DNA from: a virus
Virus record (IMG/VR): IMGVR_UViG_3300034158_000010
Span: 1 to 64,000 of that record
Reading direction: 5' to 3' (one strand)
Length of the DNA stretch: 64,000 nt
Both the position numbers and the translations under genes were made by a program. The notes beneath the pieces were generated by a model. It did no database searches. It was not told the DNA's origin and saw nothing but the letters and a program-made list of their open reading frames with translations. Position 1 is the first letter of the stretch; each line of letters begins with the position of its first letter. This document shows, in pieces, positions 13,306 through 36,051 of the stretch.

Positions 13306-13605
13306 ATGAAACGTTCTAATAACACCGGTCCATTGCATGCCGCTTACTATCTCATCGAGGCCGATGGTGAGTACAAGACTGCCATTCTGGAATACTTGGA
13401 GAAGCAAGCCGCTGATCCAAAGGCTTGGGGGTCTAACTCCTCCCGGTTTGATCTGGATGATCTGGTGGCGCGCCACCGTATCAATGGTAATCGTCAGCTG
13501 CCGCGTGAATACCCATTCATCATGACAGTTAACATCGACAACGAGTACAACCGTCTGACGGTTCACTTCATTACCGAAAACATGTTTGATCAGGAGCCCG
13601 TATGA
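13306..13605 (+). CDS. Hypothetical protein, paralog family B
   Basis: YPFIMTVNIDNEYNRL. Confidence 0.75.
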   Translation: MKRSNNTGPLHAAYYLIEADGEYKTAILEYLEKQAADPKAWGSNSSRFDLDDLVARHRINGNRQLPREYPFIMTVNIDNEYNRLTVHFITENMFDQEPV

Positions 13606-14015
13606 AAAAGCTACGTGATGGTGTTTACCGCATTGAGCGGATGTTGGAATTGCAAGCTATGGTGGACGAGTACATTCTCCAAGTTGGTGAGGATCGTGAA
13701 GACATCGCTGTAAGTTATGGTCTTATTCCACCTGCCTTTCCTTTCCTCGCCGTGATCGACTTCAGTGATGAGTATTACACGCTCAGTATTGAGTACATCA
13801 CCTTGTGTGATTTCGAAGAGTCCTCGGACGATGCAGTGCATCTGTTCGAATTCGAGATTGAACGCACTGCTCTGGAATCCCCATACACGGTGCGCCGTTC
13901 GACGTATCAAGTCCCCGCGCCGGATATCCTCAAGGCTATCTTGCAACTCGGTCAGACTCATCACCGTGATGAAGTCTACGATCTCAAAATTGTCAAATGG
14001 AATCAAGTACGATGA
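13602..14015 (+). CDS. Hypothetical protein, paralog family B
   Basis: FPFLAVIDFSDEYYTL; ATGA overlap. Confidence 0.75.
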   Translation: MKKLRDGVYRIERMLELQAMVDEYILQVGEDREDIAVSYGLIPPAFPFLAVIDFSDEYYTLSIEYITLCDFEESSDDAVHLFEFEIERTALESPYTVRRSTYQVPAPDILKAILQLGQTHHRDEVYDLKIVKWNQVR

Positions 14016-14512
14016 AAAGACTAGCGCAGTATAACGGCGGCATGCGTTCGGGTATCTACAAGTACCTCATCGAAAATGATGTTGAATTGGAACAGGCCGT
14101 CGAAGAAGCCTGTACCGATATGGGTATGTCCGTTAAGGACCATGGTTACGGTCTTGATGACGTACCTAAAAACTACCCGTACATCGCACTAATTCACCCT
14201 GACAACGAATATAGTCGTATTGACTATGCTTTCGTTGAGATCGCTGACTTCACTGACAACAGTGAAGAAGGTACATTACAGATGTTGTTGAATGCTACGT
14301 ATAACGATACTACCATGGCACCGTGGATCGAACGTATTCGCAACGCTCAACGCCGTGGTGACCTTGAGGTCGATTTCAACGATCTTGACGATGCATCTAA
14401 CCCTAGCAACGAACGCTCGGTTAACGATCATCAGATCGAGTACATTCGTCAAAAAGGTTATACCGTACGGTGGGAGAAATACCCACGGTCTTATATCGTC
14501 TCGGGCTGGTAA
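14012..14512 (+). CDS. Hypothetical protein, paralog family B
   Basis: YPYIALIHPDNEYSRI; ATGA overlap. Confidence 0.75.
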   Translation: MKRLAQYNGGMRSGIYKYLIENDVELEQAVEEACTDMGMSVKDHGYGLDDVPKNYPYIALIHPDNEYSRIDYAFVEIADFTDNSEEGTLQMLLNATYNDTTMAPWIERIRNAQRRGDLEVDFNDLDDASNPSNERSVNDHQIEYIRQKGYTVRWEKYPRSYIVSGW

Positions 14513-16070: not shown

Positions 16071-16958
16071 TCATTTTAGGAATGTACCGCAGGATGCCTG
16101 AACATCAGTACCTACGCGTGGGATTACTTTCACTTTACCGCTGATGTAATGTTGGATGTACCCGGCCAACATATCAATGTGTCGCTCAGGTGGTTCTTTA
16201 GAACTATGTCCAACCGGTGGGTTATACCGGACGATGTTCCAGTCTGGATGTAGATCGTAAGCATGTAGCAATCGGATCACAGCCAGTACGTCAACTAACG
16301 TATCGTTCTCACCCTCAATGAAGGCGTAGTGGATCTTAGAACGTTTACCCGTGGCGTTATACCACCGAAGGAGTTCACCGCAGCCTTTAGCAACTATCTG
16401 TGCTTTAGGTAACCAACGACGACGGAACTCTCGATCCGTTGAGTAGATCGAGTAATAGATGTCAGGGTATACGGTTGAGTCTTTGAAGATGTCAGTCAGT
16501 TCCAGTTCACCCATCTCTTTAGGGAAGATAGTTGAGATCTTAAACTTAACGTCTAACCCGCGTTCATCAGCCATGGCCTTTAGGCCACGTAGGATCTCAT
16601 CAGCATTAGCCAGGAAGATCTTATTAGCGAGTGGTTCGCCACGGGCCATGAAATTGAAGTGCACCATCTTAGCTGGGGCCTGCGTATCGTAATAAGCAAA
16701 GACTTCCCGAGCTTGTTCGAAGTATTCTTCAATAGTTGTGTCACGCAGATCAGTCTGTCCGGTTGCAGTCAACCAACACATCCTACAAGCCTGCTTACAG
16801 CCTGTCTGAGAGCTTAAGTAGTTAATGAAGTACTCTTCAGTACGTCTGACGTAACGCGCCTCTAATCGCCCTGTGTGGTCGTCAAAGCTACGTTCAAAGT
16901 TTACAGATTGGTCCAGTTGTGAATGGTGTGCAATGTACTCAGTCATGTTTAACGTCAC
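16071..16958 (-). CDS. RlmN/Cfr-family radical SAM protein
   Basis: SSQTGCKQACRMC (CxxxCxxC), FMARGEPL (cf. MGMGEP), END, C-terminal DVQASCG (cf. DIDAACG). Confidence 0.85.
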   Translation of the reverse strand: MTLNMTEYIAHHSQLDQSVNFERSFDDHTGRLEARYVRRTEEYFINYLSSQTGCKQACRMCWLTATGQTDLRDTTIEEYFEQAREVFAYYDTQAPAKMVHFNFMARGEPLANKIFLANADEILRGLKAMADERGLDVKFKISTIFPKEMGELELTDIFKDSTVYPDIYYSIYSTDREFRRRWLPKAQIVAKGCGELLRWYNATGKRSKIHYAFIEGENDTLVDVLAVIRLLHAYDLHPDWNIVRYNPPVGHSSKEPPERHIDMLAGYIQHYISGKVKVIPRVGTDVQASCGTFLK

Positions 16959-17208
16959 CCTTGGTAATGGTTAGCGTGTATTCAAGCGGTTGGTATTCAC
17001 GGATAGTGATTTCGATCTCATCTCGACCTTTACAGTTGTAATCGATAACGGGCTTCCATGGGGCGAACCAGTTATCAGAAACCATATTATCCAAGGCTCT
17101 TACCAGATGATAGCCACGGTCAGCTACAACACACTTAGCAAACACTTTACTGGTGTAGTAGTCTACGTGGCGGTTGATCTCATTCTTAACGTCAGTTACC
17201 GACCGCAT
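16939..17208 (-). CDS. Hypothetical protein
   Basis: Coupled to neighbours. Confidence 0.7.
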   Translation of the reverse strand: MRSVTDVKNEINRHVDYYTSKVFAKCVVADRGYHLVRALDNMVSDNWFAPWKPVIDYNCKGRDEIEITIREYQPLEYTLTITKGDVKHD

Positions 17209-22529: not shown

Positions 22530-22605
22530 TGGCACGCATCCCAAGAATCGAACTTGGAACCTACGGTTTTGGAGACCGTCGCTCTGCCAATTGAGCTAGA
22601 CACGT
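22530..22605 (-). tRNA. tRNA-Trp(CCA)
   Basis: 76 nt cloverleaf; anticodon loop CT-CCA-AA; TTCGA T-loop; encoded CCA. Confidence 0.95.
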
Positions 22606-22608
22606 AAA

Positions 22609-22684
22609 TGGCTCCATGACCTGGACTCGAACCAGGGACAAACGGATTAACAGTCCGTTGCTCTACCAACTGAGCTATCATGGA
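22609..22684 (-). tRNA. tRNA-Asn(GTT)
   Basis: 76 nt cloverleaf; CT-GTT-AA; encoded CCA. Confidence 0.95.
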
Positions 22685-22690
22685 ATGTGG

Positions 22691-22858
22691 CTATGCAACT
22701 TTACCTTCACGCTCATCAAGAGTGTAGTCGGCATCGTTGACGGCTTCTTTCAAAGCCTGATGGTCAAGTTTAAGGTTCTTCCAGCTAAGTCGATCACAGC
22801 ATCGACAATCAGCGGGACCAAAGTTATCAAGTGGACGTTGTTTGATTTTCACTTTCAT
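22691..22858 (-). CDS. Small protein inside the tRNA cluster (55 aa, CRCC)
   Basis: GAGGT RBS before ATG 22858. Confidence 0.6.
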   Translation of the reverse strand: MKVKIKQRPLDNFGPADCRCCDRLSWKNLKLDHQALKEAVNDADYTLDEREGKVA

Positions 22859-22880
22859 AGCTTTTACCTCGAGAATAAAT

Positions 22881-22974
22881 CGAGTTATAGTAACAGCGAG
22901 TATCGAAGTCGCACACAGCCACGGATTGGTTACCGGAGCCTGTCCTACCAATTGGACGATGTCACTATAACTTG
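22881..22974 (-). ncRNA. tRNA-like RNA with extended acceptor helix and enlarged anticodon arm
   Basis: D arm GTCC-AATTGGTA-GGAC; T arm GCGAC-TTCGATA-CTCGC; 13 bp terminal helix; no CCA. Confidence 0.7.
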
Positions 22975-22978
22975 AAAA

Positions 22979-23063
22979 TGGTGGAGAGACAAGGATTCGA
23001 ACCTTGGAAGAATTAACGCCGGATTTACAGTCCGGTCCCTTTGAGCCGCTCGGGAATCTCTCC
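22979..23063 (-). tRNA. tRNA-Tyr(GTA)
   Basis: 85 nt; CT-GTA-AA; long variable arm; encoded CCA. Confidence 0.95.
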
Positions 23064-27360: not shown

Positions 27361-28521
27361 TTAAGCCAGATCGAAGTCGAAGGTCTCATCTTCACGGGAA
27401 GTGTCTACAGCGTTTACCATGTACTGGTTGTTGTCAACTTCTTGAGGGCTGGTTTGGTTAGCCGCAAGGTCGAGGTACTCAGTCATGTAAGGGAGTGGGT
27501 TCTTCTCAGGGAATTCCAGAGGGAAGCCGGTGACCAGTTCGAACTGTGCACGCATCTCATCAGTGATGTGATCCTTAGCACCAGTGAAGGTACCAGCAGC
27601 GTTACCGTTGAACAAGACCCATTGGATCATCTTCTTAACAGTTACACCTGGTAGTTCACGACCTTCGGAGAACAGGTAGGTCAACCAATTGACTTCCGTC
27701 ATGATGATTTCCCAGAACAGCTCTACACCTTCAGCCATGGTGTCTTTATAAGCTTGCTGACCACGTGGGGTTTTCAGCATTGCCTTGATGACTTCCTGAC
27801 CGAACTGAGCGTGTACTTCGAACTCATCGATAGCGATCTTCTGAACGCCCATCGCGATTGGTTGGAACCGACCCATCTTACCGAAGGCGAAGGTTACAGC
27901 AAACGATGCCATGAACTGAATACGCTCAAGGTAGTAGAGCGCCAGCAAGAACTTGAAGATCTTGTTGTACAGGTCTTGGTCGTTAGGGATCGTACCGCAA
28001 GCATAAGCATGTGATGCGTCGTGTGCTTCACCCATTACCTTGGCTACGGCCAGCATACGTTCTTGCGCTTCTTGCACCTTCAGGATTTCATCGAGGATGA
28101 CCTGCGGGTTCTTGAAGGAGTTACGCACGATCTCGGAGTAGGTAAGAGCGTGAAGGTTCTCGTTGGAGTTGATCAGTACGTAACCTGCCCAGACGCGGGA
28201 GTCTGTGATTACTGGACCCAAGATGTTAACGATAGCACGAGATGCGGTAGCGTCAGCTTCCCACTGCCATGCCAAGGTCTTAACCATCATGTCGTAGTCA
28301 CTACGGGTAGCGGTCTCGAATTCATGCAGGCAGTCACCATACGGGAATTCGTTCTCGTCCCAGTCCATCATCTTCAAGCGTTTGTACAGGTTGAACAAAA
28401 CCGGGTGGTGGTTGTTAATCGAATCGAACAGACCGGGTTCTTGACCGAGGATGATCTCGTTAGAATCGTAGTCAGTTTTTTGGTTGTTAAAGATCTTGAT
28501 CGGGAGGTCAACAGTGGACAT
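27361..28521 (-). CDS. nrdB: Ribonucleotide reductase class Ia beta subunit
   Basis: EADA, ENLHALTYS (radical Tyr), LERIQF and DEFEVH di-iron ligands. Confidence 0.93.
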   Translation of the reverse strand: MSTVDLPIKIFNNQKTDYDSNEIILGQEPGLFDSINNHHPVLFNLYKRLKMMDWDENEFPYGDCLHEFETATRSDYDMMVKTLAWQWEADATASRAIVNILGPVITDSRVWAGYVLINSNENLHALTYSEIVRNSFKNPQVILDEILKVQEAQERMLAVAKVMGEAHDASHAYACGTIPNDQDLYNKIFKFLLALYYLERIQFMASFAVTFAFGKMGRFQPIAMGVQKIAIDEFEVHAQFGQEVIKAMLKTPRGQQAYKDTMAEGVELFWEIIMTEVNWLTYLFSEGRELPGVTVKKMIQWVLFNGNAAGTFTGAKDHITDEMRAQFELVTGFPLEFPEKNPLPYMTEYLDLAANQTSPQEVDNNQYMVNAVDTSREDETFDFDLA

Positions 28522-34962: not shown

Positions 34963-35513
34963 CTCTGATTGCCAAACCCGCTATCGACGATAACAACGTC
35001 CTCAATGAGATCGCTCGTGACTGCTTGGTCACCACTGATGATCCTAACACCACCATGCTGCGCCGTGGTTTCAAACTGCTCACCGAAGACGGGGTTGTAC
35101 ATGAACTGTCCTTTGCACAACTGGACGGTTTGATTAACATTCTGGATCTGTCTCGTGACGTAGCGGGTATTACCCCACTCCAGTATGTGATCACCACCTA
35201 CGACATCAAAGACCTGTTGGATATGGGCACAGCTGGTTGGCTCGTACCTGAGTACTCGATCACGGTTATGCACAACATCAAGACCGTTCGATTCGAAGGC
35301 CGTCTGACTCAAGTAGGTCACGCTGATAAAGAGTTCAGCTTTGCATTGGGCGACTTTGACTTCATTCAACAGTTTAGCCTGAGCCGTGTGATTTCTACAC
35401 AAGCTGAACAACTGAAGGTAGCTGCTGGTACCTTCGACATGTCCTACGTTTATACGTTCGGTCCAGAAGGCATCACCCTGAAGACACTGGAGCTAACTCA
35501 CAATGAAGCTTAG
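34959..35513 (+). CDS. Hypothetical protein
   Basis: AAGGA RBS; ATGA overlap. Confidence 0.8.
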   Translation: MTLIAKPAIDDNNVLNEIARDCLVTTDDPNTTMLRRGFKLLTEDGVVHELSFAQLDGLINILDLSRDVAGITPLQYVITTYDIKDLLDMGTAGWLVPEYSITVMHNIKTVRFEGRLTQVGHADKEFSFALGDFDFIQQFSLSRVISTQAEQLKVAAGTFDMSYVYTFGPEGITLKTLELTHNEA

Positions 35514-36051
35514 TATGATCGTAGCACGCTCTCTGGATGATGTGATTGGTCAAGGTAATGGTATCCCTTGGGACTGTCCACCCGATATGATGAACTTCAA
35601 AGCCATTACGTCTGGTCCGGGTAAGGCTATCGCGATGGGTCGTAAGACTTGGGATTCCCTCCCTAAGAAGCCTTTGCCTAACCGCTTGAACATCGTTATT
35701 ACCAGTAACCCTGAGAACGTTACCGATGCCAATGAAGACGTCATCATCGTAGGTAGTATTGATGAGGCTATTAAGGTTGCAGGTAACTTGGATGTAGCTG
35801 AACTTATCTTTATCGGTGGAGCTACTATCTACAATGAAGTAGTGCATCTGGTCGATGAGGTTCACCTGACTGAGATGAACTTGATGTTGGCTGAGTTGGT
35901 AGAGAACCCAACTAACGTTTTGTTTGAATACACCTTTCCTTGGTCACAGCATAACCCAGACCAGGATTGGGTTATCGTAGATCGCCACACGTGCTATGAC
36001 GACGACCAGAACGAGTTGTACGAATACTTCCACCTGCGCCGTAAGCGCTAG
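35503..36051 (+). CDS. folA: Dihydrofolate reductase
   Basis: IVA...IG..NGIPW..P.DM..FK; MGRKTWDSL..PLPNR.NIVIT; IGGATIY. Confidence 0.95.
   Translation: MKLSMIVARSLDDVIGQGNGIPWDCPPDMMNFKAITSGPGKAIAMGRKTWDSLPKKPLPNRLNIVITSNPENVTDANEDVIIVGSIDEAIKVAGNLDVAELIFIGGATIYNEVVHLVDEVHLTEMNLMLAELVENPTNVLFEYTFPWSQHNPDQDWVIVDRHTCYDDDQNELYEYFHLRRKR

Follow-up and report, generated by a model that had tools for sequence, protein, structure and literature searches.

The closest described system to the protein dealt with here is RlmN (YfgB of Escherichia coli), the enzyme of m2A2503 in 23S rRNA and m2A37 in tRNA, represented by the model TIGR00048 and by the PDB entries 3RF9/3RFA, 4PL1, 5HR6/5HR7 and 6FZ6. 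In the RlmN reaction, one molecule of SAM methylates the residue C355 and a second one makes a methylene radical, which adds to C2 of adenine (PMC12871812), the residue C118 then acting—as described in a preprint from the Booker laboratory—in the deprotonation that follows the radical addition and releases the product (PMC12871812). Since the corresponding general base of the class C methylases NosN/NocN is named there as a carboxylate, the base need not be a cysteine (PMC12871812). With C118 replaced by alanine, the formation of m2A is abolished and the enzyme stays cross-linked to the tRNA (PMC5130265), the titles of the entries 5HR6 and 5HR7 being consistent with the C118A variant of RlmN cross-linked to tRNA. 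The other related system is Cfr (23S rRNA m8A2503, antibiotic resistance; models NF000424 and TIGR04432; PDB 9P0P), which is of the same superfamily and fold as the protein studied here. Cfr, Cfr(C) and Cfr(D) all retain the C118-type cysteine as well as the N-terminal domain and group with RlmN, unlike the family described below.

The window, i.e. the whole stretch of 64,000 nucleotides that was analysed, makes up the beginning of a viral contig from IMG/VR (IMGVR_UViG_3300034158_000010) that is 85 kb long and whose completeness is estimated at ~28%. Its kin are the Pseudomonas phages 201phi2-1, Phabio, Psa21, D6, RVTF4 and Viktualia, which we take to be nucleus-forming jumbo phages. On the minus strand, at positions 16071..16958, the window carries a minimal RlmN/Cfr-like radical SAM gene, delimited and assigned from the list of open reading frames, PHROG 27142, TIGR00048, an AlphaFold2 model searched with Foldseek, and an analysis of the start site. 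The gene would encode 295 residues if read from the GTG at 16958 and 291 residues if read from the ATG at 16946. The latter is the likelier start because it is preceded, 9 nt upstream, by AAGGGTG and because ATGACTGA overlaps the stop of an upstream 89-residue open reading frame (16939..17208, minus strand); the true start is therefore probably ATG 16946 rather than GTG 16958. The length of 295 residues given in a preliminary description of this DNA is thus correct for the open frame, the probable product being four residues shorter. From the overlap of stop and start, translational coupling between both genes is likely. As a possible split-off N-terminal domain of RlmN, the product of the 89-residue frame was rejected, as it has neither a Pfam match nor similarity to E. 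coli RlmN; moreover, the frame occurs in three of the 13 related phage loci and hence is not a conserved partner. The window protein is a homologue of gp434 of phage 201phi2-1 (62.5% identity), which the annotation of that phage does not list among the virion proteins marked by mass spectrometry.

Concerning the comparison with RlmN, the E. coli reference sequence, taken from NC_000913.3, contains the segment TLCVSSQVGC with the first cluster cysteine at residue 125 and C118 seven residues upstream, and the segment DIDAACGQL around C355. Three alignments were prepared, namely a profile–sequence alignment by hhalign (probability 97% over 258 columns), an alignment by phmmer against the RlmN chains of the PDB, and one by MAFFT. 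All three place Y47 of the window protein on C118, C54/C58/C61 on C125/C129/C132, and C290 on C355, the stretch from Y47 to C54 being free of gaps in each of them. The tyrosine is encoded by the codon TAC at 16818..16820 (minus strand, as are all the features that follow) within INYLSSQTGC, seven residues before the first cluster cysteine. The motif CKQACRMC (16776..16799) represents the CxxxCxxC signature of the [4Fe-4S] cluster with C54/C58/C61, fully conserved in the family, and FMARGEP (16632..16652) is the SAM-binding motif of the GGE type—MGMGEP in RlmN—with A105/R106 in the place of G177/M178. Tyr172, located in YYSIYS (codon 16443..16445), replaces the His235 found in the segment SLHA of RlmN and Cfr; the histidine occurs in 9/9 sequences of RlmN and Cfr together, the tyrosine in 46/46 and 142/143 members of the family in two alignments. 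The motif DVQASCG (16086..16106) contains Cys290, the counterpart of the methyl-carrier cysteine of the class A enzymes (C355 in RlmN, C338 in Cfr), a cysteine being present here in 142 of 143 relatives. The alignment with RlmN begins around residue 89 of the latter, and seven N-terminal-domain residues conserved in RlmN and Cfr (P38, R41, Q44, M60, K65, R68 and L71) have no counterpart in the MAFFT alignment.

These results bear out most of what the preliminary description had read from the letters: the motifs INYLSSQTGC, CxxxCxxC (as CKQACRMC), FMARGEP and DVQASCG are all found where it had placed them within 16071-16958, the spacing it gave between C118 and the first cluster cysteine of RlmN holds in the reference sequence, the methyl-carrier cysteine is kept with a tyrosine standing at the position of C118, and the N-terminal accessory domain is missing. 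Its assignment of the protein as RlmN/Cfr-like likewise agrees with the alignments, with the structural comparison, and with the best matches among the named families.

The AlphaFold2 model, built with 16 sequences of the family, reached a pLDDT of 90.5 and a pTM of 0.89. Cys290 is located on a floppy C-terminal tail, five residues from the end of the chain and in a segment of low confidence, i.e. flexible, the last two blocks of ten residues having a pLDDT of 67 and 42. When the model was compared by Foldseek, the ten best matches in the PDB were all RlmN-type chains (E-values from 2e-14 to 2e-12, TM ~0.7), including 3rfa, 5hr6 and 6fz6; these were followed by Cfr (2.9e-10) and, far more weakly, by pyruvate formate-lyase activase (5e-7), with LipA and other radical SAM structures also matched. 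The score of 24.2 for PF04055 is below the gathering cut-off of 29.5, and the membership in the radical SAM superfamily is given by the conserved C54/C58/C61, the SAM-binding motifs and the partial TIM-barrel fold. The search of the ESM Atlas yielded generic radical SAM clusters only. A profile matched over its full length is PHROG 27142, described as ‘Fe-S-cluster redox domain-containing’, with an E-value of 6.3e-133 and 444 bits over residues 7-295 of the protein and positions 5-300 of the 300 in the profile.

Several database records annotate such proteins as ordinary members of the RlmN/Cfr type, i.e. as orthologues making m2A or m8A at A2503 of 23S rRNA and/or at A37 of tRNA, and some phage records carry the label ‘ribosomal RNA large subunit methyltransferase N’. 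RlmN and Cfr are indeed the best matches among the named families, but the scores stay well below the respective cut-offs, with 59.5 bits against 290 for the RlmN equivalog TIGR00048, 45.4 against 530 for the Cfr model NF000424, and 40.6 against 550 for TIGR04432. Given also that both the N-terminal domain and C118 are absent, orthology with either enzyme is considered very improbable, and the evolutionary tree and the taxonomic distribution dealt with below argue in the same direction.

The tyrosine at the C118 position is a character of a whole family. The word-indexed search returned 1457 homologues of the window protein, and the profile search, run over 1.84 billion cluster representatives, gave 419 clusters at E ≤ 1e-30, so that the tyrosine clade, clustered at 50% identity, comprises 419 clusters or more. 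Which residue occupies the C118 site was tallied for the best 150 of ~3000 profile hits, the cluster motif being present in 149 of these 150; a tyrosine was found in 148/149 and a cysteine in 1/149, the latter in the protein P0225, present on two contigs. A second alignment gave tyrosine in 142 of 143 representatives. The natural variant P0225 hints that at this site tyrosine and cysteine may be interchangeable, at least there. The C-terminal cysteine of the xSCG motif is retained in essentially all of the best 150 representatives. At 41 positions, the alignment of 143 representatives is conserved to at least 95%, and since the window protein carries all 41 of them, it can be regarded as an intact member of the family; with 1457 homologues and 41/41 conserved positions, the pattern of motifs is evidently not a product of chance. 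It should be noted that the proteins P0124, P0137, P0182, P0256 and P0262 possess N-terminal extensions of 70–190 residues without obvious similarity to each other, which could be either miscalled starts or fused domains.

A further question is whether another cysteine stands in for C118. Another cysteine at the C118 site, which the preliminary description had named as evidence against its reading, is not available to the family: 26 of the 149 representatives hold four cysteines in total—the three of the cluster and the C-terminal one—so that a substitute resolving cysteine is absent from the family. A cysteine directly preceding the tyrosine is present in at least 19/149 representatives and is not conserved. 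The fifth cysteine of the window protein, C193, was rejected as a candidate substitute, its position being occupied by leucine in 101 of 143 relatives.

The absence of the second cysteine recalls the cross-linked C118A variant of RlmN mentioned above, and the protein might accordingly be imagined as a single-turnover covalent trap, remaining attached to its RNA target and disabling, for example, the tRNA or the ribosome of the host. A trap would, however, tolerate any residue at the C118 site, yet tyrosine occupies it in 148/149 clusters among the best 150, which disfavours this explanation. The gene is, moreover, found in bacterial chromosomes and on megaplasmids beside the translation apparatus of the host itself, without a conserved neighbour that could serve as an antidote, and a phage relies on the host ribosomes for its own propagation. 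A suicide cross-linker is thus quite improbable and less likely than a methyl synthase in which Tyr47 acts as the resolving residue. The preliminary description had left a choice between an enzyme trapping tRNA or rRNA, one that resolves the adduct with tyrosine or another base, and one acting on a different substrate, such as a phage RNA or a nucleotide. The near-invariance of the tyrosine, the separate clade and the coexistence with rlmN favour the second and the third of these, whereas a simple loss leaving the enzyme stuck on RNA is disfavoured by the conservation of the tyrosine.

The evolutionary tree was calculated by quick IQ-TREE as an unrooted maximum-likelihood tree under the LG+G4 model from 59 sequences (58 of them distinct), i.e. 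47 from the tyrosine family, six canonical RlmN proteins, three variants of Cfr and three further paralogues that bear the cysteine. A branch with an SH-aLRT support of 100 sets the tyrosine family apart, at a distance of ~2.4 substitutions per site, from RlmN, Cfr and the paralogues, and all the 12 sequences on the opposite side possess the C118-type cysteine. As judged from these sequences, the family would represent a separate, third clade within the RlmN/Cfr superfamily, being neither RlmN nor Cfr. It may be added that one Polyangiales metagenome-assembled genome contains four genes of the RlmN superfamily: the canonical RlmN (356 bits), the tyrosine form, and two paralogues with the cysteine (217 and 97 bits), of which the one with 97 bits groups with Cfr (SH-aLRT 93).

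The features that the window protein has in common with RlmN are the radical SAM core and its beta-extension, the motifs CxxxCxxC, GEP, STxG, Sxx, ND and NxxxxN, and the cysteine in xxCG on a flexible C-terminal segment. The protein differs from RlmN in lacking the N-terminal domain, in having tyrosines for C118 and H235 and ARGEP for GMGEP, in a chain ending five residues past the cysteine, and in its patchy, accessory distribution. When the columns of the core conserved in at least eight of the nine RlmN and Cfr sequences were taken, 62 in number, 25 of them proved to be retained by 80% or more of the tyrosine family. The retained residues include E33 (E105 in RlmN; 46/46), Q82 (Q151), the S/T of the STSG motif, S170 (S233) and R179 (R242), together with the counterparts of N286/D287, N307, N312, G348 and C355/G356. 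The following positions have switched and are fixed within each of the two groups: K94 to N20, V107 to R35, C118 to Y47, G177/M178 to A105/R106, H235 to Y172, A354 to S289 and L358 to F293. Near the top of the barrel, the family has thereby gained fixed arginines, i.e. R35 for V107, R106 for M178, and R244; they would be compatible with a substrate bearing a phosphate.

With 25 of the 62 core positions kept, some room may be left for a different radical chemistry without any methyl transfer, such as an isomerisation, a reduction, a repair or a shuffling of hydrogen atoms, carried out on a nucleotide or a nucleic acid, with Cys290 and the pair Tyr47/Tyr172 forming a hydrogen-atom relay. Such a relay of cysteine and tyrosine residues is found in spore photoproduct lyase. 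That two tyrosines fixed in the family replace just the cysteine and the histidine of RlmN and Cfr would be in line with this explanation, as would the long branch towards both enzymes and the disappearance of the RNA-binding domain. The cysteine of the xSCG motif is, however, found in the same place on the same tail, and E33, Q82 and R179 are kept, which the mechanism through methyl-cysteine explains most simply, and positive evidence for any other reaction is absent; a non-methylating enzyme is thus regarded as unlikely.

Short relatives lacking the N-terminal domain are known from two other phages, namely gene_104 of Klebsiella phage 05F01 and gp170 of the Tunturiibacter phage Tunturi_5, both of which, like the window protein, have the C-terminal cysteine, here in xxCGMF, and are 21–28% identical to it. 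At the C118 site, the protein from 05F01 has a valine, with a cysteine three residues later, and that from Tunturi_5 a cysteine, in contrast to the tyrosine of the window protein. In the retrieved locus of phage 05F01 (L180), the RlmN-like gene at 1351-2280 lies between the genes for an ADP-ribosyltransferase and an anaerobic ribonucleotide reductase; the gene of Tunturi_5 is located at 1477-2475 of its locus (L181).

With regard to the occurrence of the tyrosine family, its members are encoded by jumbo or very large phages—those resembling Pseudomonas phage 201phi2-1, the Caulobacter phages CcrColossus and CcrPW, and Brevundimonas jumbo phages—and by 80 IMG/VR loci, many of them on contigs of 180–460 kb. 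They are also present on Pseudomonas megaplasmids of ~1 Mb, e.g. pMPPla107, and on secondary replicons of Rhizobium, Acetobacter, Acidiphilium and Miltoncostaea. Chromosomal copies occur in many Planctomycetota and Myxococcota and, to a lesser extent, in Actinomycetota, Rhizobiales and bacteria of candidate phyla. The carriage on mobile DNA is a feature in common with Cfr. Of five host genomes tested, three, i.e. those of Rubripirellula, a member of Polyangiales and Nocardia, contain a canonical RlmN alongside the tyrosine form. In two genomes of Saccharibacteria, the tyrosine form is present and a canonical RlmN was not detected, which would speak for an ordinary orthologue; the possibility that it replaces the housekeeping rlmN there was nevertheless rejected, since the tyrosine form is present in only one of the 151 genomes sampled from the class. 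The coexistence with RlmN, the single occurrence among 151 genomes, and the location on megaplasmids and in jumbo phages define the gene as patchy and accessory; it is cargo of jumbo phages and of other mobile DNA and not a housekeeping rlmN.

The neighbourhood of the gene was compared in 76 bacterial and 80 viral loci. In the bacterial ones, the sole recurrent neighbour is a gene, divergently oriented upstream in about 30 loci, for a protein combining TIGR02996 (‘repeat-companion’) with leucine-rich repeats, often followed downstream by a sulfotransferase (15 loci) and a sulfatase (nine loci). Confined to Planctomycetota and Myxococcota, whose radical SAM copies group as sisters in the tree, this block would seem to have been transferred as a module; no link from it to the phage gene was found. 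On the megaplasmids, all the neighbours are hypothetical proteins. Among the viral loci, no neighbour is common to different lineages, the gene being adjoined by terminase, RecA-like, SbcCD-like and NS-endonuclease genes; in the phages, the surroundings thus consist of lineage-specific ORFans or of ordinary genes of replication and packaging. No conserved phage neighbour pointing to the substrate was found in the phage loci examined.

Of the genes that neighbour the family in bacteria, only that for dihydrofolate reductase has a counterpart on the phage contig; apart from the radical SAM gene, it is all that the phage has in common with the bacterial or metagenome-assembled loci carrying the family (L074/L075). 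In the window, the dihydrofolate reductase gene is located at 35503-36051 (plus strand) and the gene for the small subunit of ribonucleotide reductase at 27361-28521 (minus strand). In two Rhizobium/Neorhizobium loci, a dUTPase/dCTP-deaminase-like gene lies directly downstream of the tyrosine-family gene (L066:8860-9546 and L070), two cases being too few to be weighed. The window also contains a cluster of tRNA genes—Trp(CCA), Asn(GTT) and Tyr(GTA)—at 22530-23063 (minus strand), ~5.6 kb from the radical SAM gene; to our knowledge, none of the three is an isoacceptor modified by E. coli RlmN. Three tandem small open reading frames of 99, 137 and 171 residues, located at 13306-14512 (plus strand), share the motif …P[FY][IL]…D.EY… and match overlapping parts of the gp425-427 region of phage 201phi2-1, apparently as a local array of paralogues.

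With the rival explanations weighed, the preferred reading, to which we would assign a probability of roughly 45%, is that of an intact and, as predicted from its sequence, catalytically competent methyl synthase of the class A type, in which Tyr47 would do the job of C118 on a target other than that of RlmN. Since the cluster, the SAM-binding motifs, the tail cysteine and the residues E33, Q82 and R179 are all kept, both the methylated Cys290 and the methylene radical are expected to be still formed. One molecule of SAM would thus methylate Cys290, and a second one would be cleaved to the 5'-deoxyadenosyl radical, giving rise to a Cys-S-CH2 radical; the base to which this radical would add, at an sp2 carbon, would be heteroaromatic and most likely an adenine. 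Its near-invariance makes Tyr47 the candidate to take over the task of C118, so that Tyr47, perhaps together with Y172, would remove a proton and/or relay a hydrogen atom or an electron; the C–S bond would then break, and the methylated product would be freed without the formation of a Cys–Cys disulfide. Once activated, Tyr47 may serve as the base; alternatively, it may pass on a hydrogen atom or an electron and so quench the thiyl radical left at the cleavage of the C–S bond. Against the role of a base, it should be pointed out that, with its pKa, a tyrosine serves this purpose less well than a thiolate would, except when activated; the role of Tyr47 could also be purely structural. In view of the missing N-terminal domain and of the arginines newly found close to the active site, the binding of the substrate probably differs from that of rRNA and tRNA in RlmN: the substrate may be a nucleic acid recognised via other surfaces or through a partner, or a substrate of the size of a nucleotide.

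A more far-reaching version of the methyl-synthase reading, held here tentatively and rather doubted, would have the tyrosine resolve the adduct on a target never touched by RlmN or Cfr—a nucleotide or a nucleic acid of the phage or host—and thereby produce an uncatalogued modification that would serve mobile DNA, jumbo phages and megaplasmids included, in its conflicts with the hosts.

The full-text literature searches found no published work on the tyrosine clade or on a class A enzyme with tyrosine in the place of Cys118, and the database labels of the family are either generic or wrongly RlmN. If the enzyme is active as predicted, its reaction has to be completed by a route that none of the papers found describes. 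Methylation via a methyl-cysteine of the protein itself has its textbook examples in RlmN and Cfr, each of which depends on a pair of cysteines; an extensive natural family in which one of the pair is kept and the other is a tyrosine in nearly every sampled member therefore lends itself directly to testing how such an intermediate can be resolved in an alternative way. The result also corrects the label ‘ribosomal RNA large subunit methyltransferase N’ that has been propagated onto phage genes, and a new modification of nucleic acids or nucleotides made by nucleus-forming jumbo phages and megaplasmids may come to light.
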